A stretch of DNA of 64,000 nt from Neocallimastix sp. 'constans' (lineage: Eukaryota), in assembly GCA_050613775.1 (NCBI GenBank), contig JBODTK010000102.1, positions 310,001-374,000 of the forward strand, in the 5' to 3' direction. Shown one piece after another: positions 2,026 to 45,920 of the stretch (positions are counted from its first letter, which is position 1; each line of letters opens with the position of its first letter). A program made the position numbers and the translations under genes. The notes below the pieces were generated by a model. It was not told the origin of the DNA. It did no database searches and saw nothing but the letters and a program-made list of their open reading frames with translations.

Positions 2026-4338
2026 TTCCTGTACTAATAGAATCAAACTTTGGTTGTAAATCATTATTATTATTATTTTATATGTTGTTCGACTTTTTTA
2101 CAGGATTGTCTTTTTTTAAATTTCTTTATCTGCTTTATCATCATTACTAATTTCATCATTATTTTCATTATTTAATTTTAGATTATTTCTATTATATTCC
2201 TTATCCATTAAATAATCCATATTTTGAAATATTTGGAGTATTTGTAGGTTATATCATTATCTTTATCAAAGATCATAAGAATGTTTTCATATGATTTAGA
2301 GTTATAACTGCAATGATTATAACTTTCACAATTATACAATGAATTATAAGGAATTTCCATTGAACTTTCTTCAATAATATTTACAGATTTAAGATCATCA
2401 GTACTTGTAGAATAATCAAGATGACTATCTCTAAAATTTAATTCATTAAGGATAGTAATTGGTTTGATATTTAAATCAAAATCCGAAGATTTTAAGATTT
2501 CATTAATATCTTGAACTTAATATTTAATGTTACTTTAGTATCATTAAATTTTTACTACATATCTTCTGCATCTCTAATTTTCGTTATTAATTGTTGTTCA
2601 TCATTTATTACCTTTTTTATTCTTTTTTCTTCAGTTTCTTCAATATTTTTTTGTTTCTTTGTTTTATATAAAATCGATAGATTAAATATTTAAATTTTAT
2701 AAGAAAATGTTTTTCAACTATAACTTTTTGTTAGTAAATACTTTCTACAGTATCATTATATGATACCATAGAAATTGCAATGTTACTATTAATTTCATTT
2801 ATTTGAGGATCTTCATAATTCAATAGTATCTTTTATATTTGAATAATTTCTTTTTTATCTTGTCTTAAATAATTAATATTATTAATTAATGAAATTCATT
2901 TTTATTAATGAGGAATATTGTATAATAATAGAATTTTAAATATAACTAATTTGAAAACGAATAATGGCGAACTAGTCAAATCTTCCTTTGTGTTCATTTA
3001 TTCCTCCTTTTACAAAAAGGATTAACCTTCTGTTAAATAATCTAAAATAAATTCTCTTATTTTAATACATATAACCTATATACAACTATATAACAAATTT
3101 AATAGCAGAATTATTATTTACAACCACCTCTTTCTTCTATTTTTTGATTTAATGTTTTTCATGGAATAACTTTTAAATATTTCTCATTTGATGATTACTA
3201 GAATCAAAAATAAATTGCTGCCTTCTAATTATAACTTATATTCCATAATACAATATATATATCATGTTTCTTTCAAAATTTATATTTATTCATCAGTAAA
3301 ATACTTATTTCGATTTATAGTTCATTTTATAGTTATCATTTACTTTAAGAAGACAAGATTTCTTATTTTTCAAGCTAGGACCATATAATAATATATGTGT
3401 TTGTTCTAGGGGCCCTTTCAATAGATGTACTGATTTCTTTTTGCATAAACTTAAAAACTATATATAAAATAATATTTTTAAATACTTTAAGATGCTGAAT
3501 TTTTTATAACTATTATAAATTATAATTTAAATTTATTTCTATTGTAAATTGAATTTAATGCAAATTTTAGTTTTCAAAAGATAATTCTTTAATATTTACT
3601 ATCTCCATTGCAATAACAACAACTTTAATGAAAAATTTTATTTTCAAATAAGCACTTAATATTGACTACTTTTAATTTCATTTTCAATAATTATTGTCGT
3701 GGATCGTGAATTCAAAAAGTTTATTATTTATTAATAATAGATAATAAATAAATATATATTAATTACTTATAAATTTTAAGGTGATATACTATAATTAAAA
3801 TAATTTTAATAAAATAAATATTTGTGACTATATGTTTTCAATTTTATATATGTTATTTAATGAAGCAATTAAGTAGTTTTTATTATATTTATCTTTTCAT
3901 TCTTATATTTAAAAATATTTTTTAAATTTAATATATTTGTTTGGATGAGTTTGAAGTAATGTTAGTTTGTTGTCATTAATGAAAATTTGTCGTTAAAATA
4001 ATTAATTTAATAATAATATTAAAACAATTTAAAGTTAGATAGCTATATATATTTTTATATTTAATTTTATTATATTGAATACTTAAACTTTCACGTTTTT
4101 GCTCAATCTGGTATGACTGAGATTCTTAATCTTTTGAAATAAAAATATTTTTTATTATATAAAAATATAAGAATAGTATATGAAAAATAATAATGTTCAT
4201 TTTTTTGAAATTTATAGTTAATATAATCTGTGACTTATTATTATTATTGTTCATATATTTTACATAAATATATTAAAATATATAGTATTACTCCTTAAAT
4301 TAATATAATTATAAAACTTTATATTTATATTTCTTGCA
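2026..4338 (-). mobile_element. Non-autonomous LTR element (element E, related to D), 5' part, interrupted by A0; internal region is a decayed non-gag/pol ORF
   Basis: PBS at 4118-4131; 4030-4131 and LTR 4132-4338 align with D (29258-29570); minus-strand 2030-3450 gives long stop-interrupted reading stretches (e.g. VQDINEILKSSDFDLNIKPITILNELNFRDSHLDYSTS) with no retroelement motif. Confidence 0.65.
4132..4338 (-). repeat. 5' LTR of element E
   Basis: The 4240-4338 part is similar to the D LTR (attattg.tcatata...actccttaa.ttaatat...taaaacttt.atatttatatt...ca). Confidence 0.65.
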
Positions 4339-6662
4339 TAAAATAAAGTTTTTAATTATTTTCTAATATTAAGTATTATTAATATTAATATATCCGAAAA
4401 AAAGATTAGAAGAAAAAACTTGGAAATGATTTATTTAAATCATATTAAATAAACAATTTTATGAATTAATTAATTTTAAATTTTAACAAATTGTTTAAAT
4501 TAATTAATTAAATAATGGTAAATTTAATAATTCCAAAAAAGAATGTATTTATTTATAGAAAAAAAATATAAATTTGTTAAAGTTCTAATAATCGTTATTT
4601 ATTAATAATTTTGTAAATTTAATTAGTAATATGAATAAATATAAAAATTTCTTATTTCAATTATCTTTAATTAATATAATTTTAATTTTAAAAATATCAG
4701 CAATAAAGTAATGTTTTTTGAATTAATTAATTATATTTTATATAATAAGGTTTCCAATTTACAATTTTATTATTATTTAATTATTATTTATTTATATATA
4801 CATTTTAATAAGTAATTCTATTATTATTAATAATAAAAGAAACTATTACAATTGAACTAATATCAATAACCCATTGTAATTGTACTGATGTTAAATTAAT
4901 CCTATATTGGATTAATTAAAATTATTAAATTTAATAGAAATATTATTAATTAAAAATCAGAATATTGTTAAATAGGTGAATAAATCATAGTAATAAAATA
5001 AAAATCTAGTTAAATTAGTGAATATTTAAATAAATAATATAAAAAAAAATATTTAACTCGATTAAAATATTAATTTAACAAATGTAACGACATTTAAATT
5101 AATTAAGCCTCTGCATTATAATGTTTGAATTTAATTTTAATTTTAATAAACACAAATTTTAGTTAAATAATTAGTATATATAATTTGTTAAGAAAAATTG
5201 TTAAATGTTATTGTTAATTATTTTTATTTTTTATTTTTCACTTTAATTTTATTTTTAATTATTTTTTCTGATTTAGAAAGTTATAGTTGTTCTATTATTA
5301 TTGATACAATTTATTTTAATATAAAATAAACAAAATTCTTTTTAATATCTTAAATTAATATTAAATAATAAAATTCTTAATTTTAATTTTTTAATTTAGA
5401 GTATTTCTAACAACTGAAACATATTGAAATTAAGTTAATTTAGTAATTTCTTACTTAAAATCTTTATTTTCATGTCTAAATATACTAGTCAATAAAAAAT
5501 AAATGTAAATTTAATTTTATTTAAATATTTTAATAAATAATTAAAAATATATAAAACTAATTAGTTATTGATTTATTAATATATTTTTTTTATTAAAAAA
5601 TAATTTTATTAAAAAATCATTATTAAATTTATTAATATTATAATTATTATCTAATTTTTATTATTATTAAGTCGGAATAATTTTTAATACTATTAATTTT
5701 TATTTCTATTTATATTAATTTTTATAATTTTTATAATTAAACTCTATTTACAAAGAATAAACTAAACTATTAATAATATATAATTAAATAACCAATTATT
5801 GCTTATTTTATATTATTTTAACTGAATTATTATTAATTTTGTATTATTTACATATTTAACATTTTTATAATTTAACAATTTTATAATCTAAAAATTAATT
5901 AATTTATTATTATTTAATTATTAATTATTTTTAAATTCAGTTTTTGTAATTATTTATAAATTCTAAATTTCATTCTTTATCATAACCAATGAATAAACGT
6001 TAATAGTATATAAGTATAATATTTGCCTTTCAAGCAAATGGCCAGAATTCAATTTTTGGCTTAACGCATGTTTAATATTGTATAAACTATTACAACTTAA
6101 TTTAAATGTATCAGTGAATATTTTAAAAATAATATTTTACTAATAAAGTTTAAATAATGAAATTAAAATTTTCTTTTAAATTATTAATCAAATTATAATA
6201 ATAAATATAAAAAATATAATTTAAATATAAATTATATAAATTAAATTTTAAATATATCTTAAGTATATTTATTAATATATACATAAATTTAGTAATTATT
6301 AATTATTAAATATTTAATAATTAATAATATATTGATCTTATAATTATACTTTTTATATAAAATATAAATAATAATAATTATTTAAAATCATCTTAATAAT
6401 AAAAATATACTATAATTTATTTTTAAATATAATTTATAATGCCAAACTTCAAATATTTTCAAATTAAACTTTTCAAAATTTTCATTTTCTTTTAAATAAT
6501 TTATTAAAAATAATTAATGATTTTTTTTTACTTTTTATTTTATTATATTTTTTTTTCGGATAACAAAAAATAACTAAGAATTTTGGATTAATTTTTCTCT
6601 TCTTCAATATATAATAAATAAATATAATAATTATAATAATAATAAAATTTAATAATAATAAT

Positions 6663-9803: not shown

Positions 9804-9845
9804 AATAATATAAATAAAAAATATGACATTTTAGGAAAGTCATAT

Positions 9846-10053
9846 TTTAGGAGGAATGTTAGAATATAAAAAAAAATAAATACTTAATAATGACTTTAAT
9901 ATATTTTACCCAATCAGAATATTATTATATTTAAATAAAATTATAAAAGAAATAAAATGTAACCTTGTTAAAAATATACACTTTTTTAATTATAAAAAAT
10001 AAAGATAAATAAAATTAAATATTAAGTATTATATATAAAATGCTATTCTAAAA
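9846..10053 (+). repeat. PPT (tttaggaggaa, 9846-9856) and 3' LTR (9857-10053) of element F
   Basis: TGTTAGAATA follows the PPT; the imperfect inverted terminus TATTCTAAAA is at 10044-10053. Confidence 0.65.
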
Positions 10054-14836: not shown

Positions 14837-15189
14837 ATATCATTTATTTGTTACAAAATTCAATTTTTACATTAAGTTCATATCAATATCTTATTTATTT
14901 TATTTTATCATATTAAATATTATTATTTCACTGCTTACTTATTTATTTTAGTTTAATTCTATTAATACTTGCAATTTATTGTAATTCACATATTTATTTT
15001 ATTTTATATGTACTTGTATTTTTATTATAATTGAAACATTTTATTTAAGTTTATTTTATTTTTGTTTATACTTGTATTTTTATTATAATTCAAATATTTA
15101 TTTTATCTTACTTTATTTACTTGTATCTCTATAATATTATATTCTATATTTTATTATTATTTATTAATATTCCCACTCTTCATTAAGAC

Positions 15190-16720
15190 ATACCAAAATA
15201 AAAAAGACATATTATTCCTATTCTCTACTCGTTTTACCATAACAGATAACTTTTATCATGCTATCATTCTAGGACAAAACTTCATAGAAAAGCATAAAAT
15301 CTATAGCAATTACTATGATTGGAAAATATACCTCAATTATAATACTTTCGATAAATCGTCACTTAAACTACTCTAAGGAAAAGAAGAACTGCCTGATGAC
15401 TATCATTGATAACGAAGAATTAAAATTAAAAATATTATTAACTAATAAAGGATCACAGGAGCTACATAGTAAACTAATAGATAATAGATCTATTTTAACA
15501 AGATATGCCCACCCTTCCTGAAACTCCCTAGGACAAGCTCTGGCCAGTGACATGTATTTTCAGCTAGAACTAGCGCAACTACCCAACGGAAAATCTTTAG
15601 GCACTAATTTAGTCAATTATAATCTTAGAGTTTACAACTCAAAAGACAACCCTAAAGGAGAATTCTGATATCACTAGGTTTTTAGTATTATATTGGATAC
15701 TATAAGACTAATACTTCCAGAAAAGTAAGAATTATCTACCAAAGAAATAGTTAAAAAAATTATTCTGCTTGTATTGAAGATTTCAATGAAAAATTGGAAA
15801 ACACCTTGCCCAAGCACCGGCCATAAGATTGCGCAGTAAAATTGAAGTGGTATTTACTTTTACAGTTCAATTTATACTATGCCAAATGAAGAAGACAAAG
15901 AGATTCAGAAGTATCTTAAAGACAATTTAGTCAACGGATTTGTAAGAAGATCTATCTCTCATGTAGGACACAAAGTCTTAATTCAAAGGAAGAAAAACAG
16001 GGAGCATAATTTATGTATTGACCACCGTAAGCTAAATAACAAATCCTACAGAATTTCTACTCATTTCCCTTAATTACTGTCTTTTCGAAACCATAATGAG
16101 TTTGAAAATCTGTAATAAACTTGATTTAAAAAGCGCTTATAATCTTATTCGCGTCCGTGAAGGTGAGGAATTTAAACCTACATTTCCACTAAAAATGGTT
16201 ATTTTGAATACATAGTAATGCCTTTTGAGTTCACCAATACATCTACTGTTTTCCAAGGATTTATTTCAATAGTCTTAAGTGATATTAATAAATTCATAAA
16301 AATGTATTTAGATGATATCATCATTTAACCAGAACATTTTGAAGAACATGCTAAATAGATACGAATATTCCTGTAGCTACTCATTAATAGCCAGCTTGTG
16401 GCCAATTTTTCCAATTGCGAATTTCAAATGCAAGAAGTCGAATTCCTTGGCCTCATTGTTAATAGTGAGAGTATAAAGACCGGCCCTCACAAGTAAAACC
16501 ATATAACTTCTACTAATAGCATCAGTATCATCAGATTCTTCAATTACTCACCGTTTTTTTAAGTACTTCTTTAAAATTGCCTGGCCTATTCATCATCCTA
16601 CTAAGATAAATGTTGAATTCATATGGAATAAAGACTGCCAGGCTGCCTTATGCTAAAAGAACTTCTTGTTTCAGCATCAGTACTGACTTATCCTTACGAT
16701 AATAAACGTATGAAACTCTA
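15190..16720 (+). pseudogene. Ty3/gypsy pol remnant (protease C-terminal part, RT)
   Basis: HAIILGQNF, LCIDHRKLN, DLKSAYNLIRVREGEEFK, FEYIVMPF, YLDDIII, CEFQMQEVEFLG, WNKDCQAA in shifting frames; no LTRs found. Confidence 0.88.
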
Positions 16721-17892
16721 TGGGTTATGTTATACTGGTCTTGCTTCAAAAGGAAGTTAAGAATAGCGGAAGCATCGTACACGTAGTACTAGAAAATTAT
16801 AATTTTAAAGATATAATAAACAGTGAAATGTTATTAATAATACTATAAATATTATTTAATAGTATTTAAATATTTTAGTAATAAATAATAAATAATAAAT
16901 TTTAATAATAAAAAATAATAAATTTAAATAAATAATAATATATTTAAAAATAAAGAAAAAATTAATTAAAATAAAATATAATTAAAATTAAAAATCAAAT
17001 AAAATAAAAAATAGAATAATATAAAATAAAATATATAGCTGGATATGAGTATAAAGAAGAGATTGAAAAATTAAAATAAAATAAAAACCAGAATATAAAT
17101 ATAAAGTACATATTGAATAAAGTAAAATATAATAATTAATAAAATATTATATAAAAGTACTAATATAATAAAATATATTACAATCAAATAAAATAAAATA
17201 ATATAAAATAAATAAAATAAAACACATTAAAAAAATTAAAATTAATTAAATATTATGATTTAATAAAAAATTAAAATTACAAATTTTATTATTATAATTA
17301 ACAATATTTTCTTATTAATTATTTATTATAAAAAATATTATTAACTTTTAAAAAATTATTGTAAATATTTAGAATATTTTAAAATTATAAAAAATGATAT
17401 AAAAATATAAATAGTTGAATAAATGATAAATGATATTAAAAAAATAATTTAAATAAAAAAATATAATAAAGATACTTAGTTAAACAAATAAATTCTTCTC
17501 ATTAATACTAATTAAAAAAATAATTATAAAAGATATTTTTAATTTATTATTATAAATTGTAGTACATTTCGAAAAATTTCATTTTGTAGAATTCACATAA
17601 AAATTTCATTTCAGAAAATTTTAATAAATAGATAAATAAATTATGAAATAAATAAATAATAAATTTATTATAATATTTAAAAAAATAACAAATTTAATGA
17701 AAAATAAATAATTTAAAAATATATATTATTATATTTTTATTTATTTAATAAAAAAAATGAACGATTTTATAATTATTTTTCTTTTCATTGAGTATTGAAT
17801 TAATAAATAAAAATAATATTTATAATAATAAAATTTAAAAATAATAGCAAATATTTATTATTATATAATAAATAAAAAAAGTTTTAAATATT

Positions 17893-18111
17893 TTTTAGAA
17901 AATGATTATCTCTTCTTTTATTATGTTTTTAACAAAGTTACAGTTGGAGGAAATTATCTTTAAAAAATATTTTTTTATAATTATGTTAATATATATAAAT
18001 TACACAAGAATATATTATTGGTCATATACTTTATATATATAAATTAAAATTATACTACAAAACTCCTTAATTTAATATGAATATAAAACTTTAATATTTA
18101 TATTTTTAAAA
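17893..18111 (-). repeat. 3' LTR of element D
   Basis: Direct repeat of 29355-29570, adjacent to the PPT. Confidence 0.92.
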
Positions 18112-19375
18112 TTCCTCCTCAAGTCTAACTTTGAAACAAGTTAGAATTGAATCGATTTTATGTTGTTATTCGGATATATTTGATATTTAATATTTTGGAT
18201 GTTAAATCATTAATTGCTTTATGGGTGCCATTTTTATATGATGTGCTATTATTAACTCTCAAATTAATTCAGGTTACTGATATTCACTATATTCCTGATT
18301 TTTGTCCATTTAATGACATTACATAAATATTTTTATGTTTACTTGGTAAAGGTAGCTGATACCAGAATTTCATGAAAGGAAATTTTATTTTAGTAATTGA
18401 ATATTATATGTTGCTCCTTATAAGATATATATAATTTGTCGAAATTTTATATTCCCTTTTTATTTTCTTTAAACATTAATTGTGGTTTTACTAATTAATA
18501 TAGATAATGTGGAATTTAACGCTTTTCTAAATGTAGAAATATTCTAGAAGTGAAATATATCTAGAATACATATTATAAATAATTTATTTATAATATTCTT
18601 GCTTATTAAGATTTTGTTTAACTCTTTGGCCAATAGCTATTAATTCATTTCATGTTAGGTATTGTTTCATTTTATTTTAATTATTTTTTATTAAAATATA
18701 AAATATTAAATTTATACTTGAAAGGGATTTCAATTAATCTTCTTTTAATGAATCTATAATTATATGATATCGAATTATATTTGTTGGGATTCTTTTAAAT
18801 TTATTTTGCCAACAGAATCAAAATCACTTTCGTTTTCAGTAGAATTGGCATTGAAAATTAAATTTAATTTATTTTTGATGTTTGAATTATGATAATTAAG
18901 ATAATTATTAAAAATATCTCAGAGATTAATTTGCATGTGGAAATTAGTAAAATTGTATATCGAATATTTGAATTCTTCTTGTATGGATTATTATGTTAAT
19001 TGAAGGTAATTGAGTTATGACTAATACATTTATTTATTGATTACTGTCAAAAATATTATGTTAAGAAACACTCAAATAAGTTATAATAAACACAATAATA
19101 AATATATATGGATTAGTAGTTTTTAGAAAAATATTTTTTTATAACAGTATAAATTATTTTTATTCTCTTTTGTATAAGATATTATTTTTTATAAAATAAT
19201 AATTCCATGATTTTTATACTTTTTATTTTAAATATTAATACAAGTAATTGGTCATTATTTATATTAAAGATAGATTAATTAAATTAATCATTATTTTGAC
19301 ATTCCCCCAAAAATCTAGCTTCAAAAAAAAAACTTTTTAAAAGATAAAAAAAAATGAAGATAGATTTTAATATAA

Positions 19376-22300
19376 TTAATTAATTATTTTCGTTAATAAG
19401 GTATTTCTAAATTTGTCCATTAAAGAGTTATTTAAGTATTTTGTAAAACCATCAGCAAGGTTGTCCTTTGATTTTATGTATTTTAATTTTATAATTTTCT
19501 TATTTACTAAATCCCTAATATGATGATACCTAATATCAATGTGTTTTGATTTCGGATTTATTGATTGATTTTCACTATTATATATTGTTGCTTTATTGTC
19601 TACGAAAATTGTTATTTCTTTGATATTTATGTTTAATTCGTTTAGTAAATTTTTGTACCATAATGAATGTTTTGCGCATTCACTTAAGCTATAATATTCA
19701 GCTTCTGTAGTTGAGGTGGAGACACAGTGCTGTAATTTGGAATACCAACTTGTTGGAGTGTCCCCCATTAACATGAGAAATCCAGAAGTTGATTTTCTTG
19801 TATTCGGATCGCCAGCAAAATCGGTATCTACAAATATTTTTAATTTCATTCCCTTTTCTATTTTGATTCCATAATTTTTTGTATATTTGAGATATCTAAA
19901 AATTTTTAAAACATTCATCCAATCTTCTAAGTTGGGATCTGTTGATTTTCTTGAAGCTCTGCTAACAGCAAAAAGAATATCAGGACGGGTACAGATAGCT
20001 AAATATAGTAAACTTCCTATTGCACTTCGGTATTTTGTTTCATTGAATTTCTTGGTTCTTAGATTTGGATTTACTAATGGCATAAGATTTTTTACTGGTA
20101 TTAAGTTGTTAATATCGAATTTATTTAAAATGTCATTTATATATCTACCTTGATGTAAAATGTAGCCATTTAAAGTTTTGGTAAATTTTATTCCAATTAC
20201 AAATTCAACATCCCCAATATCCTTTATATTGAACTTCCTTTGAATAGATTGTTTTACTTTATTTATTTCTTGATTTGTTCCTGCAATGAGAATGTCATCA
20301 ACGTATACTGAGAGAATACAAACTATTTCCTTCCCATTGTTTAATTTAATATAAACACATGGCTCACTTTTTATTCTATTGAAACCTATTTTTATCAATT
20401 CTTCATTGAGTTTATCATTCCATTCTTTACCAGCTTGTTTTAAGCCGTAAAGAGCTTTGTGAAGTTCCCAAAAAGATTTTCCGTAAGATGGATGACCCTC
20501 TGGTGCTTTCATGTATATATGCTCATTTAATGGTGCATTTAAATAAGCTGAATTGATGTCTATTTGAACAATATTGAAATTTTTCTGAACCGCGATAACT
20601 GTAATGATTCGAACTGTATCCTGTTTTAGTGTTGGTGCAAATGTTTCTTTGTAGTCGATACCGTACTGTTGAGTGTATCCTTTTGCAACTAATCTTGCCT
20701 TTCTTTTAATAACATTTCCGTTTGCATCTCTTTTATACTTAAATACCCATCGTGATGATATTACGTTGGATCCTGATGGTACTGTTTTAACAATTTTATA
20801 AACATCAAGATTTTTCATAATTTCTAATTCTTTCTTGATTGCGTTTAGCCATTCTATTTTATCTTTAAATTTGAATATATCCTTGAAGTTATATGGTTCA
20901 ATTAATGTATTTTCATTAATTTTCATGTCTGATTCATCTGTGTTGTTTTTTTTTTCTTTTATTTGAATTAATTGTAAAATTGTTTAAATTCCTTTTTGAA
21001 TTTTTAGGATGTTGATAGTTTTGATTTTTCTCTTTATTTGTGTTATATTTATTATTAATGTTGTTAATTTCTTGTTGGTTTTCTGTTGATATTTTGTTGT
21101 TATCATTTTCAGTCGTATTTTTAATTTCATTATTAATATTGATTGAATTATTATTGAAATTGTGATCATTTGAATTTAACAATTCCTGATTGAAAGTGTT
21201 GTTACTATTATTGATTGAATTATTGTCAATAGTATTGTTGTTATTTTCATTATTATTATTTTGATTACTGTTATTAATGATAATTTTTTTATTATTATTT
21301 TGATAATTGGGATAATATTTACGACTAATTCTATTTGTTTTAGAGGATTTATTTTTGGATTGATTTTTAATATTTTTATTCTGGTTAATATTTCTATTCT
21401 GGTTAAAATTTGTTGTAGCATTTCTTTCATTGATAATATCTGTTATTTTATTATTATAATCATCAATTTCATTACGGTATCTAAGTCGGTTTAGACAGTT
21501 GCTCTCAATGAATTTGTTATTGGAATGAATACGATTTAAAAAGGAATTTCCTGGTTCATTTTCCATAAATTCTACAGTGCGAGATTGGATGATTTTATTA
21601 TTGATAACATCAAGAATTTTGTAAGTGGAAGGATGATCGCCATATCCAAGAAAAATACCAGGATGTGAATTATTGTCAAATTTTGATCTTAGTTCCTTTG
21701 GCACAAAGAAATAGACTCTACATCCGAATACTCTAAATGTATTGTAATCTACAGGCTTATTATAAAATACTTCAAATGGAATTTTGTTTTGAATGCCTTG
21801 ATGGGGAAGTCGATTATGAATATAGTTTGCAGTATCAACAGCAAACTCCCAAAAATCATGACTGAGTTTAGCGTCGTTAAGAAGTGATTTTGAAGAAGCA
21901 ATGAGTATACCATTAAATCTTTCAGCCCTTCCATTTTGAGAAGGGTTATAAGGAACTGAAAACTGATGATGAATTCCATTTTCTTCACAGAAAATTTGAA
22001 ATTTACTATTTTGAAATTCCTTCCCATTATCAGATCGAATTGCTTTGATATTTATATTTAATGAATTATAAATTTTATTATACCAAATGATAAATTTGTT
22101 AAATACATCATTTTTATTTTCAGTGAAGATGACCCATCCATATCTAGAGTAGTCATCTAAAATTGTAAGGAAATACTTATTGTTATTTATTGAAGGATTA
22201 ACAGGTCCTACAAGATCTAGATGTATTAATTCTAAAATTTGTTTAGTCTTATTGGTAGATGGTTTAAATGACTTATTTTTTAATTTGGAATTAATACATA

Positions 22301-23971
22301 CTGGGCATTTTAATTTTAGATTGATATTACTTAATTTATTTTTTATTTTAGAAATATCATAATGACCTAGGCGTCTATGCCAAAGGTCAATTACTTGTTG
22401 GTTATTTGATACTGTATAATTGATTTCGTTATGTTTTGTTGAATTTAAATTTGTTTGGTGTTTGGAAGTGAAAATTTGATATGTATTTTTATCATTAGAT
22501 AAAGATTTATAAATTCTATTTCCATTATTATCATAAATTAATGCTTGTGGGGAGTTGTCATAATTATTGAATATTACTTTATAATTTTGAGAAATTAATT
22601 GATTGATTGAAATTAAGTTTCTCTTAATATATCGTGAATAATAGACATTTTTTAAAATGAATTTGTTGTTGTTAATGAATCCTACAAAATCGCCACAAAA
22701 TTCAGATAATACTTCTTTACCATTCGCTAGTAAAATTTTTGTTTTACATTTTTTAATGTTAGTAAGAAATTTTATGTCATTAATAGTACTGATTGATGCA
22801 CCTGAATCTAAAATCCAAACTATGAAGTTATTATTATATATATTACAATTTTCGTGATTTTTATTTTTATTCTTTCTAAACAATTAATTTCGATTGCATT
22901 GTCAGAGTTATAATCTTTAGAAAAATCTTCTAAGTAGTCGTCTTTATAGTTGTTGTAATTGCTTATTGAATATAAATGCTTGTTATTAATTTTACTTTTA
23001 TTATATTTTTTGTTCAATTTTCTTCGAATTTTCATTGATTTATTTTCATTGTTTTGATTCAAGAGCTTATTTCTTTTATACTTATAACATTCCTTTTTGT
23101 AGTGGCCGTATTTTCCACATAAGAAACATTTTCCATTTTTTCTTCTTCTTATTTTTAAATGCTTATTATTTTGTTTATTTTTGTTTTCAGTTTGTAAATT
23201 AAAAATATTTTTTGCGTTTTCTTCTTGAAGTTTTCTTTCCTTGATGTTCGAGAAAAGAATATCTGGTATTATTCTTTTTACGTAATTGCAACATTTTATC
23301 CATTCATTATTGTACTGGAAAACATTTATCCACCTTAGATTTTCAGGTAAGGCTCTATTCAGAATCCCTACCTTTACACTATCACTCATGTCTGTATCGA
23401 TGATTTCCAATTCATCGATCATATTTTGAAGTGTTGCAAGGAAGATATGTATGTCATCATCTGTGGTAAATTTCAATCTGTTTAATTTATTTCGTAATAG
23501 CATTTTTTGATGCTCTTCTCCTAAAGTAAAGGAATCTTGAAGGAAGTTCCACATTTCGAAGGCGGTCTTACTATGGCTTTTTATTATTTCTTTCGTTTTC
23601 TTCCCCAGGCTATTATTAATTATCCATTTGACCATGATGTCATTCTTGATATCTGTTTGGGTTGTCCCAATATCGTAAACAAGAGAATTATTAAATTTAT
23701 CTTTAATGTACTTATCTAAATCTTCTTTAATATCCTTCTTTCTAAATTTTTTTACTTTTGGTAAACTAACGTATTCATCTAGATTATTGATGATTAAGAG
23801 GTCCAATACGTTAGTTTTCCAATCTTTAAAGTTTTCAACCGTTAATTCGGTAACATGATTGAAATTCTCGGAGTAATTGAAAGAGATTCCTTTAGCGAAG
23901 AAATTACTTTCTGATTCGGGAATTTCGATGATTTGGTTTCTGGAGTTACTTCTTGAATTGTTTCTGCTCAT
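19376..23971 (-). CDS. copia gag-pol of element B, split into 3 ORFs by two compensating 1-nt frameshifts (~22875 and the A-run at ~20945-20955)
   Basis: gag with zinc knuckle CFLCGKYGHYKKEC; WILDSGAS; RSDNGKEF; ARLVAKGYTQ; YVDD; NLADGFTK; gag and RT ORFs share a frame. Confidence 0.9.
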
Positions 23972-24593
23972 TTTCTATTTTTTATTTTTACCTTCTTATT
24001 TTAATTAAAAGTATTTATGTTTTATTATTTTCTTAATTTATTTTTTATTGCTTTTCTTTAATTTGTCTTTTATATATTTTTTATTTCTTTAGTTAGATTT
24101 TATTTTATTAAATTAAATAATGTAAATTGTAATTAATTTTGATTGGTTCTATTTTTAGTGACAATTTATTATTAATCTATTTATATAGATTTTTTAATGA
24201 TTAATATTTAAAAAATTTAATTTAAAGATATTAATATACATTTTTTTTTAATATTGATGGAGGAATCAGTATAATTTTATTATTATTGAAACCTATCATT
24301 TTGATTCTTTTATTAAATAATGTGAATGTGATTATGTTACTATTCCTTTTTTAATTAAGAATAAATTATTTTTATTAATGTTTATTATAAAGTATTGTAT
24401 ATATTTATATTACGAACAATAGTATAAAGAGATTAATTTATTTATATTAAGTGTATTTAAAAATTTTTGTTATTGTTGTGAAAATGATTATATCATTAAT
24501 TGTTCATATTTAATATATTATTATAATTTCATTTTAATTAAAATCTTTATTTTAATTATTTATTATATAATTGAATTTTTTATTATATTTTTC

Positions 24594-24815
24594 CCAGCTT
24601 ATATAGCATAGCTGACATGTCATGTTCTTTTATTCTCAGCTTATATAGCATAGCTGACATGTTATGTTCTTTTATCCTCAGCTTATATAGTATAACTGAC
24701 ATGTTATATTCTTTTATTCTCAGCTTATATAATATAGCTGATTTTTTGTTTCATTCTCAGCTTATATTCAATAGCTGATCTTTTATTTCATCCTCAGCTT
24801 ATGTCTAATAGCTGA
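24594..24815. repeat. Six tandem hairpin units (42/37-bp period) in the 5' leader of B
   Basis: TCAGCTTAT-N-ATAGCTGA units with CAGCTT at 24595, 24637, 24679, 24721, 24758, 24795. Confidence 0.9.
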
Positions 24816-25051
24816 CCTTTTGTTTATTTTCAAATTCAATTATATTGATATTGGACTTCTTTGTACAATTATTTTAAATATTAAAGATTCCACTTTTATT
24901 TTAGTTTTATAATTTATAAATATATATATATATATATAAATAATTAAAAATTAATATTTAATAATAAATATATAAATTTCAAATTTATTTAATGTTAAAT
25001 TTTTATTTTAAAAAAAATACTTAGCTTTTATATGGATTAATCGGTTGAGAT

Positions 25052-25065
25052 TGAGACTCTTAATC
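25052..25065 (-). other. Primer-binding site of B, complementary to the tRNA-Lys(CUU) anticodon arm
   Basis: The + strand reads TGAGACTCTTAATC and abuts the LTR. Confidence 0.85.
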
Positions 25066-25336
25066 TGTCAAAAATATTATGTTAAGAAACACTCAAATAT
25101 CTCAAATAAGTTATAATAAACACAATAATAAATATATATGGATTAGTAATTTTTAGAAAAATATTTTTTTATAACAGTATAAATTATTTTTATTCTCTTT
25201 TGTATAAGATATTATTTTTTATAAAATAATAATTCCATGATTTTTATACTTTTTATTTTAAATATTAATACAAGTAATTGGTCATTATTTATATTAAAGA
25301 TAAATTAATTAAATTAATCATTATTTTGACAATTAC

Positions 25337-27720
25337 ACAAAGCTTATGGTTTAGTTTTCAGTTTTGATTGATATTTTATTTTAATTGCGAAATCAATAAT
25401 AAATTTGAATAGTCATTAAATATATTAACGTTATATTCAGGGTGTTCAATGATATTACTTATTTGAAATTATTATACTTTGACGATAATTATTCCCCCTG
25501 ATTTCGTAATTAGAATAAAAGTTATAGAATCGATTTATTTTTGGTAATAAAATTTGAAATAGAGAGATATTTATGTTTAAATATTTCCGCTCTAATATGG
25601 GTTGATGTTCAAAATAGGAAATATATAAAATTTTTAATGTATTAATTTTGTTCCTAATATAACTTAAAATATGGAAATGATAACAAATGATAATGATGAT
25701 ATGTCCCGTTTTTATAGGTGGGAAATTGAAATAAGATTATTTTAATAAAATTTAATTGGTTTATTTTAATAGATATCCAGTAACTATTTTAATGTTAATA
25801 GTGCATTCATTTTTCAAAATTTCTTGAACCATTTTCGATTGTTGATTTTAATAATGATCACACTTTTGATTTATTAATATGATGGATTGTATTTTCAACA
25901 TAATCTCAGAATTTATACGATTTATTAAAGAAATATAATTAATATTAAAATCATTTTCTTTTATATCTAAAGTTATATTATGATCAGTAGCATAATCTAA
26001 TTATTTATGTTTAAAACAAAATTGTCATTTTGTAACCTTCTATTATAGGGGTATCATTTATATTTAAATTGATATTAGTTTGATTGGAATAATTCATTGG
26101 TTACTTTATAATTTATTTTTATTTTGATGTTTTACATAACAATACAAAGGGAAATGACCATGTTTTTATTTATATAGAATTGTTTATCATATATAATTGA
26201 TAAATTTGCCATTTCAATATTATTTATTTTACAAGCGGTTAGATCATGATATTGTTCATAAATGTTTGCATCGTTGATATTAGATATTTTATATATCTTT
26301 ATTAAATGTATTGTTAATAAATGATTTAAAAATATCGGAATATCCTTTTTGAATTGATAAATGTATTATTGAATTTTTCTTCATTATCTTTATTATTTAA
26401 ATTTATATGGTATATTTGAGTGAGATTGTAGTATTTCAAATAATTTTATTGACTTAACTTGCAGATTGTTGGAAATATATTATAACAATAATATTTTAAG
26501 AAATTTAATATATTTTCTTTTTAATGAAATATTAATTTTTTTTTTATCTAATAAAACAAAATCCAATTCATCAGCGTCTGTTTTGAAATTGATGGAATAA
26601 TTTATTAATATTTCAATTCTTTCAACATTATCTATTTCTATTAATTGTTTGACTAAGGAATTTTCTTTATATTTTTATTTATATACTATAATAATATTCT
26701 TTTTCTATGGCGATTGAAGTTTAAAGTGCATTACAAAAATATCATCTCTTTTATTAAAATCTAGTAAGTAATCATAGTAATGACTTATCGGTTCTATTAA
26801 AATTATTTAAATTTTCTATTCATTGTCTTTTATATGATATAAGAATGGTAATTCATTTTCTCTGATTTGATTTTTTTTTTTTTTTTTTTATTTTTTATCT
26901 ATTCTATACGGTAACGTAATAATAAATATTATAGGTTAAATATTGGAAAATTATCGAGAGACCTATACTATTACAAATATTATAATGCGTTTTCTATACT
27001 TAAATATAAATTATTATCATATTCAAATTACAATATTAGTTTAAATATAATAATAAATATACTATAAAAAATATTAGTTTTTGTGAGTTTAGATCGTGAT
27101 ATTTCAACAATAATTGATTCTTTAGTTTTAAAGGTTTCTTGATTTATGATTGCAATTTCTATGATATTGTGTTCATAATGCTAATATAATATTAATTATA
27201 AATATATATTGTAATTTATAATTTAATAAAAATCGTTATTCTAGTACTACTGTTCAGTTTGTGAATTACTTTATAAATTGGAAAATTTGAAGGTTAAAAA
27301 TAGGTATTGTTAATATATTTTGCAATAAATTTTTGTTTTCGTCTTTGTATAAATCGATTTATGCTTTAATTTCAGAAAACATCTCCATTGTTTTATTTTA
27401 GTTATGATTTTATAAACCTATTTCTTTATTAATAGTTTCTAGTATATCTAACTTTTATTTGTATTTTTTAATATTTATTGTATTCATAATATAGGAGGCA
27501 TTATGATTGAAGGAGAAACTTTAGAGTCGGCTTCAATATTCTCAACAAATTTATTTATTTTTCATGAAATATATTTGTTGATATATTTACTTCGATCGGT
27601 AGATTAAGAATTTTCTAGTTCAACTATTATTTTCATCTTAAAAAATTTATTTTATCAGCTATTTGAATTTATGTTTTTTATAAATTAGATCAATTTTTTT
27701 TTTTAATTTCATTAATCATT
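25337..27720 (-). pseudogene. Decayed ankyrin-repeat protein gene, cargo of element D (probably continues at 19044-18130 beyond B)
   Basis: Fragments LNNKDNEEK/IIHLSIQKGYSDIFKSFIN (~26400-26310), ACKINNIEMANL (~26236-26200), KHGHFPLYC (~26165-26140), NDTPII (~26058-26041), LDYATDHNITLDIKENDFN (~26000-25944); many stops and frameshifts; outer limits approximate. Confidence 0.65.
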
Positions 27721-27996
27721 TTTACTCTATTGTCCAAATTACATTGAAAGTTATTTTTTTAAATTCTATTTATTAATTTTGATTTTAAGTTACTTTCTTA
27801 CAATGAGTTAAAAATATAATACTAAAAATATAATTTTGTATTATATTTTTAGTTTTTAATTTTATTATACTTAAAATTATTTAATATTTCATTAATATTT
27901 GATGTAATTTTATTAGTATTATTATTGTTGTTAATATTATTAATATAATTTTTATTTTCTAATATATCTTTAATTTTTATTTTTGGACTTTACTTT

Positions 27997-28037
<41 letters not shown>

Positions 28038-28527
28038 TTATATATAAAATTCCATTTTTGAACCCATTTTCTATAATATTGAAATATATTGAAAATTGAA
28101 TGTATGTCACGCGATTGTTATATTGAAACTATAAAAATTCTCAGCTCTTTGCAATGACACTATTATCATATTTGTATTAATTTCTGTTAAATACATTAAT
28201 GAATTTATATCTAATAATATCTTTTATGAATATGGAATTAAAATTTATAAAAGATACACTTTATTAATATAAAATAGGAACTTTTATTATATGAGAAAAA
28301 AAAATATATTTTTGTTTAGTTCGCGTATTCATACTATTTCTATCATAGTATTTTGTTAAAGGTTTATCAGACAAAATGAAAGATAAAAATAATGAATCGT
28401 CCACCGGATTGGGAGCGGTTTTAGGAAAATATTAAGATGTTCAGAAATATGCTGTGTATTATTATTTTTATGAGTAGTTGAATTAAATTTTATTTAAATT
28501 TTTAGAAAAGAAAATACGATAGATTTT

Positions 28528-28730
28528 AGCTTCCTGTTGACTATTTTCAATTAAGCTTTTATCAAGCTTTTAACCATTTTCAACTAGCCTTTTATTAAGC
28601 TGTTGACTATTTTCAACTAGCCTTTTATTAAGCTGTTGACTATTTTCAACTAGCCTTTTATTAAGCTGTTGACTATTTTCAACTAGCCTTTTATTAAGCT
28701 GTTGACTATTTTCAACTAGCCTTTTATTAA
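28528..28730. repeat. 33-bp tandem hairpin repeats in the 5' leader of D
   Basis: ttattaagctgttgactattttcaactagcctt x4 plus 2 degenerate units; GTTGA/TCAAC inverted stem. Confidence 0.92.
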
Positions 28731-28968
28731 TAATATATATATATATTCTTATTATATTTATGCATTTATAATAATTCAAACACTCAAAATATATAAATTG
28801 TTTTTTATTTTTTATTTATATATATAATTATCTTATTTTATTCATTTATATACATTATTATCATTACTAGTAATTTCATTACATCATCGGCTGACAATAA
28901 TATTTTCAACTCGATATCTTTAATTATTTTTATTTTCTTTTTGTTTTATTATTATATTGGCTGACGAT

Positions 28969-29001
<33 letters not shown>

Positions 29002-29340
29002 CAGCTTAATCTGTACATTATTTTATACCTGCTGACTATTTGTTTTCAGCTCGATATAATACAATATTAATAAATTGTTAATGTTTTATACAATATAAAT
29101 TATACTTATCTTTTTAACGCTTATATAAATCACCCATCGTTAGTTTAATATATTTAGTTGTATAGATTTTTGAATTTTGAATGTATGATTTGATTAGTAG
29201 TTATTTCAAAAAAAATGTGATTAAATATTTAATTATAACGTAATATAAAATGATTTAAAGTTAGATAGAGAGTTATATATTTTTATTAATTTATTTTATA
29301 AAATACTTAACTTTCATGTCTTTGCTCAATCTGGTAAGAT

Positions 29341-29354
29341 TGAGACTCTTAATC
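29341..29354 (-). other. Primer-binding site of D (tRNA-Lys(CUU) anticodon arm)
   Basis: TGAGACTCTTAATC preceded by the D-arm-like GCTCAATCTGGTA. Confidence 0.85.
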
Positions 29355-29570
29355 TTTTATAAAATGATTATCTCTTCTTTTATTATATTTTTAACAAAGT
29401 TACAGTTCGAGGAAATTATCTTTAAAAAATATTTTATTATTATGTTAATATATATAAATTACACAAGAATATATTATTGGTCATATACTTTATATATATA
29501 AATTAAAATTATACTACAAAACTCCTTAATTTAATATGAATATAAAACTTTAATATTTATATTTTTAACA
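29355..29570 (-). repeat. 5' LTR of element D
   Basis: Direct repeat of 17893-18111, adjacent to the PBS. Confidence 0.92.
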
Positions 29571-29834
29571 ATATTTTTTAGACACATTAATGTTTATAAT
29601 AGTTTAATTTATTTATATTATAGATATTTTATTATTTATTAATATATTTTTTTAAAAATAGAACTAAAGAAAAACATATTCATTTAGAAAGCTTTTATAC
29701 ATGAATATTATTTATTAAACTAATTGATTGGTTAATATAAAATGAAGTATAGTAAATATATTTTAACACTCCTCCTCAAATGTAACTTCGTTTCAATGTT
29801 ACATTTGTTTAATTTTAACTATATTTTTTTAGAA

Positions 29835-32800
29835 TTAAAATTTTAAATCCTCTATTTTATATAATAAAGAATTTCTGAATTTTTCCATAAGAGTGTTATT
29901 CAGATATTTAGTGAATCCATCTGCCAAATTATTTTGAGATTGAATATATTCTAATTTTATAAAATTTTTATTTATTATTTCTCTAATATAATGAATTCTT
30001 ATATCAATATGTTTTGTCTTCGGATTAATGGATTGATTTTTGCTATTGAATATGGCAGCTTTGTTATCTATTTTTATTTTAATACATTTAATATTATAAT
30101 ATAATTCTTTCATTAAGTTTAAATACCAAATGCAGTGCTTGCCACATTCACTCAGACTATAATACTCCGATTCTGCAGTAGATGTTGACACACAGTGTTG
30201 TAGCTTGGAACACCAGCTAGTTGGTGCGTTGCCCATGGTTACTAAAAAACCTGTTGTTGATCTTCTGGTTTCAGTATCTCCTGCAAAGTCGGCATCAACA
30301 AAGGCTTCTATTCCTAGTTTCCTTGTATAGTTTATCCCGTAACTCGTTGTTCCTTTAAGATATCTTAGTATTCTTACGACATTGTTCCAGTCTTCCATAT
30401 TCGGATTATTTGATTTTCGTGCTGCTTTACTTACCGAAAATAGAATATCAGGTCTGGTGCATATAGCAATGTAGAGTAAATTTCCTATTGCACTTCGGTA
30501 GGTAGTTTGATTAAACTTTATATTTCTAAGTTTGTCGTCCGTAATTGGTTTTGTATTCCTTAATGGTTTTTCATTATTTATATTGAATTTTTCTAAAACC
30601 TCTATAATGTATCTTCTTTGATGTATAAAATATCCATTTTTGTGTTTAACAAATTTTATTCCGATAACGAAATCCACGTCGCCAATTTCTTTTATTTTAT
30701 ATTTTCTTTTGAAATAATCTTTTATATATTTAATTTCATTCTCTTTTCCAGTGATTAAAATATCGTCAACATAAATACCGACGATACATAAAATGTTTTT
30801 ATTTTTATCGTTTTTTACATATATACATGGTTCACTTATCATTCTTCTAAGTCCTATTTTAGTTAAGAATTTATTAATTTCTTTATTCCATTCTCGTCCG
30901 CTTTGTTTCAGACCATATATAGCCTTGTTTAATTTCCAGTATTTTCTATTAAAATCTGGATGACCTTCTGGAGGTTTCATATAAATATTTTCACTTAACT
31001 TGGCATTAAGGTAAGCAGCGTTTATATCGATTTGTTCTATATTAAAATTATTTTGGGCAGCAATTGAAGTTAAAATTCTGATAGAGTCGTGTTTTAACGT
31101 TGGTGCAAAAGTATCATGAAAGTCTATTCCAAATTCTTGGGTAAAACCTCGTGCTACCAATCTTGCCTTTCTTTTTGTTATCTCGCCATTCGCATTTCTT
31201 TTATATTTGAAGATCCATCGTGAGGAAATTACATTGGCATTTTTGGGTATATATTTAATTGTATTAAATACATTTAAGTTTTTCATATTGCTTAATTCTT
31301 CATTTACTGCATTAATCCACTCTTTTCTATCGATTAAATTTTGAATATCTTTATAATTTTCTGGTTCTCTTAAGGTATTTGTTGTCTTTCTTCTTTTGTT
31401 ATTACTTTCATTTATAATATTCATAGTTCTTTTTTTATTATTGGTCTCGATATTATTTAATTTAAATGAATTGTTATTAGTCAATAAAGTATTTATAATT
31501 TCGTTTCCATTACGTTGAATATAATTTTTATTGATAATTGTGTTGTCATTTACTCTGCTGTTTTCAATATTATTATTGTTATTGATTGTTTTATTGGCTG
31601 TATTATCATTTATTTTATTATTATTATCTTCTATATTTTGGCTATTATTATTATTTTCAATATTATTATTATTAATTCTAATTTTATTATTACTATTATT
31701 TGTATTATTATTATTACTATTATTTGTATTATTATTATTATTATTATTTATATTATTATTATTGATAAAATTATTATTGGTTATGTCATTATTATTAATA
31801 TTATTATTGTTTATATTATTATTATTATTTGTATTATTATTAATGAAATTATTGTTATGGTTATTATTATTGATATTTTCATTGTTATTGTTACTATTAT
31901 TGTTACTGTAATTATTATTTCTTTGTTTTTTGTTATATTTTCTTTTATTCTTAGGATTATTTTTATTGATTATATCTTCGTATATATTTTGTATATTGCT
32001 ATTATTTAATATTGGTGAATTATTTAAGATGTTTTCTGAATTAAAAAATTCTTTAGAACCTGGATAATCAATTTTATTTAATCTTTGTTGAATATTATGA
32101 TTAATGTTATATGTATTGGTATCGTATGTATTTTTATTATAGTATGTATTATATGTATTATCTCTCCTGATTTCGTGATCCGGAATAAAATTGGAAAATT
32201 CAGGTGAGCATTCTTTAAGATAACTGTTTCCAGGATTGGATTCGAAAAAGGCAACAGATCTAGATAGGATTATTTTATTAGTAGTAATATCTAAAATTTT
32301 GTAAGCTGATGGATTTTCAGAGTATCCTAGAAAAATCCCTGGTTTAGTATTGTTATCGAATTTAGATCTAAAGACTTTAGGAATAAAGAAATAAACTTTG
32401 CATCCAAATACTTTAATATTTGAATAGTTGACCTTTGTTTTGTTAATTATTTCATAAGGTATTTTCATATTTATTCCTTTGTGCGGAATGCGATTATGTA
32501 TATAATTAGCAGTAGAGGTAGCATCTTCCCAAAATTGGTGACTAAGTTTAGAGTCATTCAGCATAGCTTTGGCGGAATTAATTAGGGTGCCATTGAATCG
32601 TTCCACCCTTTCATTTTGTTGTGGGTTATATGGTACAGTTAGCTGATGTTTGATACCATAAGATTTAAAGAATAAATTAAAATTATTATTGCAAAATTCT
32701 GTACCATTATCCGTTCGAATATATATAATTCTAGTATTATACTTATTTTTAATACTTAAAAACCAATTGTAAAATGAGTTAAAGGTGTCACTTTTAGATT

Positions 32801-34648
32801 TTAAAAACAAAGTCCATCCATAGCGTGAATAGTCATCGAGGATTGTAAAAAGATATTTGTTACCATAAAGTGATTCAGGAAGAGGACCAACCAAGTCCAT
32901 GTGAAGTAATTCAAATATATGTTTCGACTTATTTATTGCTTGCTTATATGGTTTATTTTTAAGTTTTGAATTCATACAAATTGGGCATTGATTAACTGGT
33001 GTATTAAGTTTTAATAATTTGTTTTTAATATGGCTAATATCAAAATGACATAATCTTCTATGCCATAAATTTAATCTCTTTGCTGCATTTGATGTAGTGA
33101 AATTTATTTCTAAATTATTATGTTGATTGTTATTATTATTGAGATTTATTTTATTATTGGTAAACCAAATTTTAAATGTATTAGTCTTGGTTGCAGTGAT
33201 GTTAACTATTCTTTTATCATTGCTATCGTAAATGATTGCATATGATTTATTATTTGAATTATTAAAAACAATTTTATAATTTTCTTTTAGTAATTTGCAT
33301 ATGGATATTAAATTTTTATTGATGGCTGGAGAGTAGTATACCTCATTAAGTATTACTTCATTGTTGTTTACATACCCCTTAAATTTTCCTTTATGGACAG
33401 CTGTAATTATTTGTCCATTAGCTAGATTAATTTCTTCATTACATTTTTTATGTCTATTAGAAGATTAAGATTGCTTGTGATATTGATTGAAGCACCGGAG
33501 TCCAAAATCCAACATGAAAGAAAGTTTTTGTCACTATCTTCATTTAAAAATTCTTTTTCAACGTTACAGTAATTTAATTCAATATTATTTTCTGTATTAT
33601 AATCTTTAGTAAAGGCATCTGTGTATATTGTGTCATAATTACTTGAAGAGGCATCATTAGTGTTCACATAATTAATATCGTTTTGAAATTTTCTTTTGTT
33701 TTTAGTTCTTTTATTAAATTTATTTTTGTTTTGATTTTTATATAAATTATTTTTTCTGAATTTACATTCATAGAAGTAATGTCCTCTTCTTCCACAATAG
33801 TTACATCTTCCACTATTCCTTTTAAGGCTTTTTCTTTTACCTTTAGTTCTATTATTGTTTCGATAATTCTTGCTCTTTCTTGTTTCAGCATTGAAGAGAA
33901 CATTATTGTTGTTTTCCTGAATGGAATTTTTTTCTTTTAAATTAGATAAAACGATATTAGGGATGATTTCCTTAACATAATAGCAGCATGATTCCCAACT
34001 CTTATGTTGAAAGACGTTTATCCACCTTAGATCTTCAGGTAAGCATCTATTTAGAATGCCGATTTTTGTATTTATACTAAGGTCATTGTCAATTTTCTCA
34101 AGTTCGTCTATTAAATTTTGCAAATTGGCAATGAATATATTTATATCGGTCTTGGTGTCAAACTTCATTGTTTCAATTTTGTTTTGGATTTCGATTTTTC
34201 TTCTTTCCTTGCTTTTGGTAAACGATTCTTGGAAGATGTTCCAAATTTGGAAAGCGGTCTTTTCATTTCCATTTATTAGTTTTTGTGTTTGTTCTCCAAG
34301 CCCATTTATGATAATCCATTTGGCCGTGATGTCGTTAGTTATATCAATGTTTTTAGTGTTCTTTTCATAAACTAACGAACTATCAAATTGATCCTCCGGG
34401 TAATCTGTTAATTCTTCTATTATATCTCTTTTTCTTAACTTCTTTACAATTGGATGAAGGACATATTTGGTTAATTTATTTATTCTTAGCAAATACAGAA
34501 TTTTTCTTCTCCAACCAGGGTAGTTTTCTGTATATAGTTCAGTAATTTGGTTGAAATTTTCGGAATAATTAAAGGTTATTCCGTTATGTGTAATATCTTC
34601 TCCGGTGAGGTTGATAACTTGTTCTTGGTTTCTTCTTCTTCCGGCCAT
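29835..34648 (-). CDS. copia gag-pol of element C with a single 1-nt frameshift in an A-run at ~33445
   Basis: CNYCGRRGHYFYEC, WILDSGAS, then the pol frame is open from ~33441 (CNEEINLANGQ...LWHRRLCH) through integrase, RT (YVDD) and RNase H to 29835. Confidence 0.92.
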
Positions 34649-35167
34649 TTCGAGTACTTTTGAAGTCTTAAATTTTTATTATTATTTTAAATTAATTATA
34701 ACTATTTTTTAATATCTCAATTAATAAAAATATTTTAGTAGTTTTTTTTTTTTTTTTTTTAAAAATATTATAATATTTAATTCTGTTAATTTTTATTAAT
34801 TTATTAGTATTAATTTGTTATATTAAAAATTCTCATTTTAATTTTTACTTAAATTTGATTTCATTAATTTGTTACTATTTTTATCTCATTTAGTATTGTA
34901 ATACCAAACTTTAATAAATAAGGCATTTATATTATTTAATTTATTATTAATTTTGATTAAATAAAAAGTGATTATCATTTGATTAGATTTTTTATTTTTT
35001 ATTCATTGATTAGTTTTATAATTTCATTTTAATATATTTGATATATTATATAATGTGATTTATTCAAAATTTTATTTAATACATATAATTAGTTTTTTTA
35101 TTATTATTTTAATTTATTTATATTTTTTTTTATATTAATAATATTTTAGTTTCAAATTTATCTAAAT

Positions 35168-35397
35168 ACCATCAGTTGACTATTTATTTCTCATCTTGAT
35201 GATACTGTGTTTATTTTATTTTTAATATTAATATCATCAGTTGACAATAAATTTTTCATCTTGATGATATCATTTTTATTTTATTTTAATATTAATATCA
35301 TCAGTTGACAATAAATTTTTCATCTTGATGATATCATTTTTATTTTATTTTAATATTAATATCATCAGTTGACAATAAATTTTTCATCTTGATGATA
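35168..35397. repeat. Four tandem hairpin units (64-65-bp period) in the 5' leader of C
   Basis: ATCATCAGTTGAC-N-TTCATCTTGATGAT with CATCAGTTGAC at 35170, 35235, 35299, 35363. Confidence 0.92.
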
Positions 35398-35885
35398 TTA
35401 ATTTTATTATTTAACAATTTAACTATAATTTTATTTATTGTTGATTAAAAAATATCTTTATTTCTTATGGATTTGATTCGGTAATAAATAAAATACAATA
35501 AATAATAAAAATAATAATTTATTAGTTCTTTGGTTTTATTGAAAGGTAAAAATAGAAAAATTTAATTTATATTATAACTTAACTTTATTTTAAATCAAAC
35601 TCAATTAGTAGATTGAGACTCTTAATCTTTTAGACACATTAATGTTTATAATAGTTTAATTTATTTATATTATAGATATTTTATTATTTATTAATATATT
35701 TTTTTAAAAATAGAACTAAAGAAAAACATATTCATTTAGAAAGCTTTTATACATGAATATTATTTATTAAACTAATTGATTGGTTAATATAAAATGAAGT
35801 ATAGTAAATATATTTTAACAATATTTAAATATAAAATTTTAAAAAAAGTAATAATTTAATATTTTACTATCTATTAAAATAAACT

Positions 35886-45649: not shown

Positions 45650-45920
45650 TGTGAAAAACAAATTTATAAATCTAAGACAAACACTGTATTAATAAAAACA
45701 ATATAACAAAGTATTTTATGTTAGGAGTAATATTATAAAATGTTTATTAATAATTTTTATTATAAGGATATATATATATTTTTTTTAGTGATATTTTATA
45801 TTAAATTTATTTCATATTTTTATATCTTAGTTAACATTATTTAATTTACTTAGAGATTAATTATTGGTTAATATAAATTAATAATATAAATAAATGTATG
45901 TAACGATTTCGTCTCTAACA
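45650..45920 (-). mobile_element. Solo LTR of the element-G family, TSD ATTAT
   Basis: Reverse complement of 11669-11938; TG...CA; ATTAT at 45645-45649 and 45921-45925. Confidence 0.93.

Follow-up and report, generated by a model that had tools for sequence, protein, structure and literature searches.

Element D, which we describe here, is a retrotransposon with two long terminal repeats (LTRs) read on the minus strand of a 64-kb stretch (the window) of Neocallimastix sp. 'constans' DNA (assembly GCA_050613775.1, contig JBODTK010000102.1, positions 310,001 to 374,000), a stretch with very high AT content and abundant copia elements; the neighbouring elements in it are called B, C, E, and F. 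We consider D to be, probably, a non-autonomous, copia-derived LTR element that was mobilised by elements of the C type and whose cargo, possibly of ankyrin kind, was already dead. Directly observed are the cis signals of the element, a body free of gag-pol, roughly 1 kb of broken coding sequence in sense orientation, and further copies of that body. An initial annotation, made from the sequence alone, had described D as a complete LTR element carrying an ankyrin-repeat gene in place of gag-pol, moved in trans by helpers and able to help explain the large ankyrin families of gut fungi. Its account of the shell, of B nested in the body, of the missing gag-pol, and of a non-autonomous element has held, and its ankyrin assignment weakly so; the carried gene, a match to ankyrin families, and the role in ankyrin expansion have not.

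The two LTRs of D (219 and 216 nt) are real; five of their 216 aligned columns are substituted, and a single 3-nt indel separates them. They are flanked by a perfect 5-bp target-site duplication (TSD), ATATT, a pairing with a chance of 0.016 at local composition. The primer-binding site (PBS) and the polypurine tract (PPT) each adjoin an LTR, and the body between them comes to 4928 nt with the nested B excluded. Both LTRs, a PBS, a PPT, a structured leader, and a multi-kilobase interior without gag-pol are the marks of large retrotransposon derivatives (LARDs). D shares all of these, with its LTRs in direct orientation, a TSD, and PBS and PPT adjacent to the LTRs, and differs in that about 1 kb of its interior once coded for protein unrelated to gag-pol. 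The name LARD, for LTR derivatives that are large and non-autonomous, occurs in PMC5659011 (available in part). The sense-strand LTR termini of D and C are AA, not CA, and TG...AA ends recur in D, C, E, and F and in the rumen contigs L022, L033, L042, and L060, including elements with long intact open reading frames (ORFs; C and L042). Other non-canonical LTR ends are on record (TGTT, AACA, TGGA, TACA, and TGTA; PMC5659011), and D resembles those elements in that both of its LTRs depart from TG...CA, but the TG...AA form of D, C, E, F, and the rumen contigs falls outside the motif set in the available part of that source.

As the initial annotation had stated, the body contains no gag, protease, integrase, or reverse transcriptase (RT): Pfam recognised no retroelement family in 18 body frames translated across stops, and tblastn of 27 copia ORFs against the two body parts gave best E values of 1.1 and 1.6. 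Decayed controls in the same tblastn search reached 7e-60 (gag) and 4e-95, and on this evidence the body is not a degenerate gag-pol. Coding signature was scored with a frameshift-tolerant codon model against two nulls, local shuffles and a stricter order-2 Markov model. Only the segment 26870-25900 has a firm signature (z 6.7 and 4.8, respectively; 2.8 and 1.3 on the antisense strand), and it scores above the decayed gag control (4.6 and 3.4). The signature is weak at 28500-27620 (z 3.5 and 2.6), absent at 27620-26900 (z 0.6 under the stricter null), and low at 25337-25900 (2.8 and 0.3). At 18130-19044, where a C-terminal coding region had been proposed, the values are 2.9 and 1.2 and the breaks are not below chance (49/100), so that such a region has no signature that exceeds the stricter null.

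The firmly coding segment is itself a pseudogene, since crossing its 971 nt requires at least 11 breaks (17 in shuffles). The four peptides quoted in the initial annotation are present on the minus (sense) strand, but they are spread over two reading frames among stops, and the longest open stretches of the body are 93 aa in the 5′ part and 47 aa in the 3′ part; thus, to speak of D as carrying a gene is an overstatement. About two breaks would be expected from the 1.2% change per LTR copy, a figure based on few events and on the assumption of no LTR conversion, and the excess of observed over expected breaks indicates that the cargo was likely dead before this insertion.

We favour, on balance and with some reserve, an ankyrin origin for this cargo. 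The peptides may also resemble gut-fungal ankyrins. Pfam Ank gave no ankyrin match to the 18 read-through frames, five fragments, and gene models P0001-P0003, nor did PHROGs and NCBIfam to nine sequences or a PDB search to two D frames; the lack of a match in every library is the outcome that the initial annotation had itself named as counting against its claim. A HMMER search of 1.84 billion representatives with one frame (26899-26100; E 0.001) returned two matches, both of them other D copies. Three word-based searches, which together covered proteins of 100 to 2000 aa, recovered no intact relative, one of them giving none at E 10 among proteins of 581-2000 aa, and an Atlas look-up gave no usable match. 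With a custom profile built from 53 bacterial ankyrin repeats, hmmsearch --max found nothing in D, and a frameshift-aware local Viterbi alignment scored 13.4 against a null of 12.9±1.8 (control yahD, 127.9). A giant-virus bin contained no Ank_2, two motif scans of viral contigs gave one and zero loci, and AlphaFold on the stitched models of the D copies reached a pLDDT of 33.

What the peptides retain, against these uniformly negative libraries, is a weak profile signal in register. The sum of the six best 22-residue core matches in D has a z of 4.5 against Markov sequence (0/200), compared with z ≤ 1.5 in 16 control regions, in a test that was the third variant tried and on a region picked by eye. 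Three of the four quoted peptides were picked in register, the reversed profile gave z -0.2, and the score was reached by one of 1000 column permutations. Five cores in register are spaced by 64, 96, 40, and 33 codons, which is compatible with a repeat of about 33. Ranked among 360 windows, D came seventh under the Markov null and third and fifth under column permutation, and in the column-permutation test a non-ankyrin gene at 60201-61950 outscored it.

D is not the sole copy of its body. Protein relatives of the interior are limited to gene models from N. sp. 'constans', on two contigs (P0001; P0003 with P0004), and from N. lanati (one model, P0002), and they differ from the window at 11/329, 4/399, and 13/298 residues; the accessions at these Neocallimastix loci are KAL6632508.1, KAL6632906.1, and KAG4082301.1. 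All four models are stitched predictions and not intact genes: in each segment they use the broken frames seen in D. Three of the four run on from one side of B to the other, which makes it likely that B is missing from those copies. Of 21 listed sequencing runs, 14 contain at least half of the D-body words. In run X1 the median depth is 163 on eight long D-body contigs versus 41 on 14 stray contigs, a ratio of about 4 that hints at extra copies, although depth is no copy number; two runs that we guess to be RNA contain short, low-depth D pieces only.

The PBS does correspond to tRNA-Lys, as first proposed, but its complement is found in the tRNA-Lys(CTT) anticodon arm, ending near position 40, rather than at the tRNA 3′ end. 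The match was taken from viral loci: the word lies inside a tRNA-Lys(CTT), from position 27-29, in 77 of the 120 viral loci that hold it, and the remaining 43 have no tRNA call there. This complementarity suggests that D may be primed by a tRNA-Lys cut near position 40. The same site is present in all copia-type elements checked and in many rumen loci. Other half-tRNA primers are used by Candida elements. Half-tRNA-primed Ty1/copia lineages include Osser, Bryco, and Gymco-II (half tRNA-Met) and Bianca (half tRNA-Ile) (PMC6317226, available in part); D shares with them an anticodon-arm PBS abutting the LTR, and B and C share their copia domain order. The tRNA of D is Lys(CTT), while the available part of that source lists only Met and Ile for plants, and a literature search that included the available part of PMC6317226 found no report of half-tRNA priming with Lys.

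The leader hairpins and the PPT noted at the outset are likewise present. The leader contains six 33-bp repeat units (28534-28730) and a hairpin overlapping the end of the PBS; hairpins at this place were significant in only two of the six leaders folded there, and an Rfam search of the D leader gave two chance matches only. A second hairpin, variable in sequence, stands directly before the PPT in most elements of D's group. Among 28 purine-tract sites from a pattern search of the window and 26 loci, 19 folded at z ≤ -2, and some of these 19 are not element ends. An element in rumen contig L108 has a 3′ end 84% like the hairpin of D.

Trans mobilisation by helpers of the B or C type had been proposed, and within that pair C would fit best, because the AA end, the leader repeats, the 3′ hairpin with the PPT, and the target site are all shared with D. 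The leader units of D match the leader repeats of C at 73% over 95 nt (E 2e-8), the 3′ hairpin and PPT match their C counterpart at 76% over 46 nt, and C is placed exactly at the target site of D. The arrangement at 17888-35825 is ATATT-D-ATATT-C-ATATT, and the third ATATT, directly past C at 35821-35825, indicates a tandem double insertion in which the middle ATATT is common to both elements. B, whose insertion duplicated ATTAC (19040-19044 and 25332-25336), is younger than D. Since the LTRs of C are identical (0/193 differences) and those of B differ at 2/257, D was likely the first to insert; B then entered the body of D, and C took D's target site. Judged from sequence likeness, C-type elements are thus the best candidate helper family.

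A sister element, E, shares with D the LTR, the PBS, and the leader (72% over 365 nt), after which comes decayed coding sequence of another kind (at 3000-2050, with z 6.5 and 6.0 under the two nulls). No gag-pol was found in the E interior, and the E and D cargoes showed no similarity among the matches listed. Copia F, running from about 2045 to the edge of the window (gag E 2e-11), cuts into E; the 3′ end of E lies outside the window, and no 3′ LTR of E was found within it. A scan of metagenomes for the PBS, covering 37 of 64 parts, gave at least 122 matches. In the 18 loci with less than 30% GC, an LTR-like start, and at least 1000 nt read, gag-pol followed the PBS in eight and not in ten, two of the ten being likely chance matches; L045, with a gag-like ORF, was missed by the pattern. 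A pattern specific to the D leader had 0 matches in the metagenomes. In L061 (3-1120, minus), a D-like leader (85% over 71 nt) precedes frames of 76 and 297 aa, the longer with a Cys/His cluster. Neither frame received a family, PDB, or fold assignment (AlphaFold pLDDT 43 for the ORF), and a possible resemblance to RZ-finger/RNF213 proteins found no confirmation. L053 holds an intact 206-aa ORF (1891-2508, plus) 700 nt past the PBS, with a signal-peptide-like start and a hydrophobic C-terminus; it scores 22.4 for Lactococcin_972, just above the cut-off of 22. Neither contig has a 3′ LTR, so both ORFs may simply lie next to truncated elements. L070 holds a complete LTR element, 1.6 kb long and of D's PBS class, with internal PPT-like copies, and L033 contains a miniature element in tandem.

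Capture of genes by LTR elements is well established for plants and animals, and yeast assays have induced it; template switching has been modelled for maize Bs1, which has a copy number of 1-5, and for animal retrocopies (PMC5131818, available in part). D shares with Bs1-like retrocopies a host-like coding sequence inside an LTR shell, its sense orientation, and low copy number, and it would likewise be able to act as a non-autonomous element; it differs in that its cargo is fully decayed, its host is a gut fungus, and no parent gene was found for it. On the Bs1 model, RNA of a copia family would have switched template onto a cellular transcript while keeping its own leader and 3′ signals; intact elements of the C type would have supplied packaging, reverse transcription, and integration of the chimeric RNA, and the cargo may have decayed while the chimera travelled as a passenger of C-type particles. 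RNA-level capture, half-tRNA priming, the helper role of C, and copying by retrotransposition are what we infer for D. For natural LTR gene capture in anaerobic gut fungi we found no paper, although Navaratna 2024 (cited in PMC13728883, available in part) may cover it.

Several results weigh against this account. No library and neither of two profile tests built here upheld the ankyrin identity, and the self-similarity of the cargo is not significant (5 of 60 shuffles reach its score). Word-based and HMMER protein searches did not find a parent gene of the cargo. The copies differ at 1-4% of residues, a divergence close to D's own age, so they could stem from segmental or genome duplication. 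Gene conversion between the LTRs might give D too young an age, and RNAalifold on plain alignments of 20, then a chosen eight, pre-PPT ends gave no common fold.

It is unlikely that D is a one-off accident, that is, an ordinary copia insertion in which a DNA-level event put host sequence in place of the interior and whose copies arose via segmental or whole-genome duplication. Such an origin would agree with a copy divergence near the LTR divergence, with only two annotated copies in one genome, and with the absence of coding signature from most of the body. However, if the cargo was intact at or after insertion, its breaks far exceed the LTR age; moreover, both cis ends precisely retain the sequence of the element, the cargo lies in sense orientation, and the sister leader precedes different non-gag coding sequences in E and L061. 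We regard as quite improbable a family of vectors by which functional ankyrin genes spread, with D a decayed member that helps explain ankyrin expansion, although five in-register core segments, the published expansion of ankyrin families in gut fungi (PMC8778642, available in part), and the long non-gag ORFs after the same PBS in L061 and L053 would suit it. The four related gene models all share the broken frames of the D pseudogene, neither the HMMER search with one frame nor the three word-based searches gave an intact relative, and the gene at 60201-61950 scores above D in the same profile test; the contribution to ankyrin expansion first suggested for D is not supported by this copy. A LARD-type non-coding spacer, or an extremely old gag-pol, whose ankyrin look is an AT-rich chance effect is a highly improbable source of an interior that, despite lacking library matches and despite the parallel of L070 with its 1.6-kb body free of ORFs and coding signature, has at 26870-25900 a coding signature above that of a decayed gag still found by tblastn at 7e-60. 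The coordinates are collected in Table 1.

Table 1. Positions in the window of element D, its signals, and related elements
Feature	Position	Strand	Remarks
3′ LTR of D	17893..18111	minus	219 nt; initial TG now TT
5′ LTR of D	29355..29570	minus	216 nt, TG...AA
Target-site duplication ATATT, left copy	17888..17892	none
ATATT, right copy of D and left copy of C	29571..29575	none
PPT of D	18112..18120	minus
Pre-PPT hairpin of D	18118..18151	minus	z -3.6 (mononucleotide shuffles)
D body, 3′ part	18121..19044	minus	without gag-pol or firm coding signature
D body next to B	25337..25900	minus	weak coding signature
Decayed non-gag-pol coding sequence in D	25900..26870	minus	at least 11 breaks; weak ankyrin-like cores
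Ankyrin-like cores (weak)	26857, 26665, 26378, 26257, 26159	minus
Unassigned D body	26900..28500	minus	A19 and A37 runs; coding signature absent or weak
Leader of D	28500..29340	minus	hairpin repeats; C-like units toward PBS
Hairpin overlapping PBS end	29324..29346	minus	z -2.7, matched by 1/200 shuffles
PBS of D	29341..29354	minus	14 nt, complementary to tRNA-Lys(CTT) anticodon arm, abuts LTR
PBS copies in window	29341-29354, 25052-25065, 35614-35627, 11939-11952, 4118-4131, 1814-1827
Pre-PPT hairpin sites	9805-9856, 18112-18163, 19302-19353, 29769-29820		also in L053, L070, L071, L093, L108, L114, L117
Copia element B, nested in D	19045..25331	minus	gag, protease, integrase, RT
Copia element C	29576..35820	minus	TG...AA ends
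Sister element E	2050..4345	minus	D-like LTR, PBS, leader; then different decayed coding sequence

Other features of the window include an inverted pair of MULE transposase sequences (37284-38736 and 41081-42499, 75% alike), with FLYWCH and MULE domains in a 483-aa frame of one copy, and decayed gypsy-like protease and RT pieces recognised by eye at 15100-16800 and 48500-50250 (69% alike between 15144-15599 and 49805-50243). An apparent solo LTR at 45650-45920 (minus) is 96% like the LTR at 11669-11938. A 590-aa Cys-rich ORF at 59338-61110 (plus) has no Pfam match, and we take it to resemble gut-fungal scaffoldins. At 63245-64000 (minus) there is an open 251-aa frame, presumably like a bacterial-type family 2 glycosyltransferase, for which horizontal transfer is possible.

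A broader and rather doubtful idea is that the conserved leader and 3′ hairpin of the half-tRNA-Lys copia lineage form a general shuttle that has repeatedly captured unrelated host coding sequences. Its cargoes would tentatively be the ankyrin-like one of D, another in E, the 297-aa ORF of L061, and the bacteriocin-like 206-aa ORF of L053. If this is true, a shuttle lineage with some intact cargo would feed gene-family expansion in gut fungi. D itself is a fossil, and an ordinary one; it points to a route of gene capture, yet not to a working gene. It does provide exact cis markers (the 14-nt PBS, the leader motif, and the pre-PPT hairpin) for a census of cargo-bearing elements, and such markers make the expansion of ankyrin and other families in these fungi testable in existing genomes.

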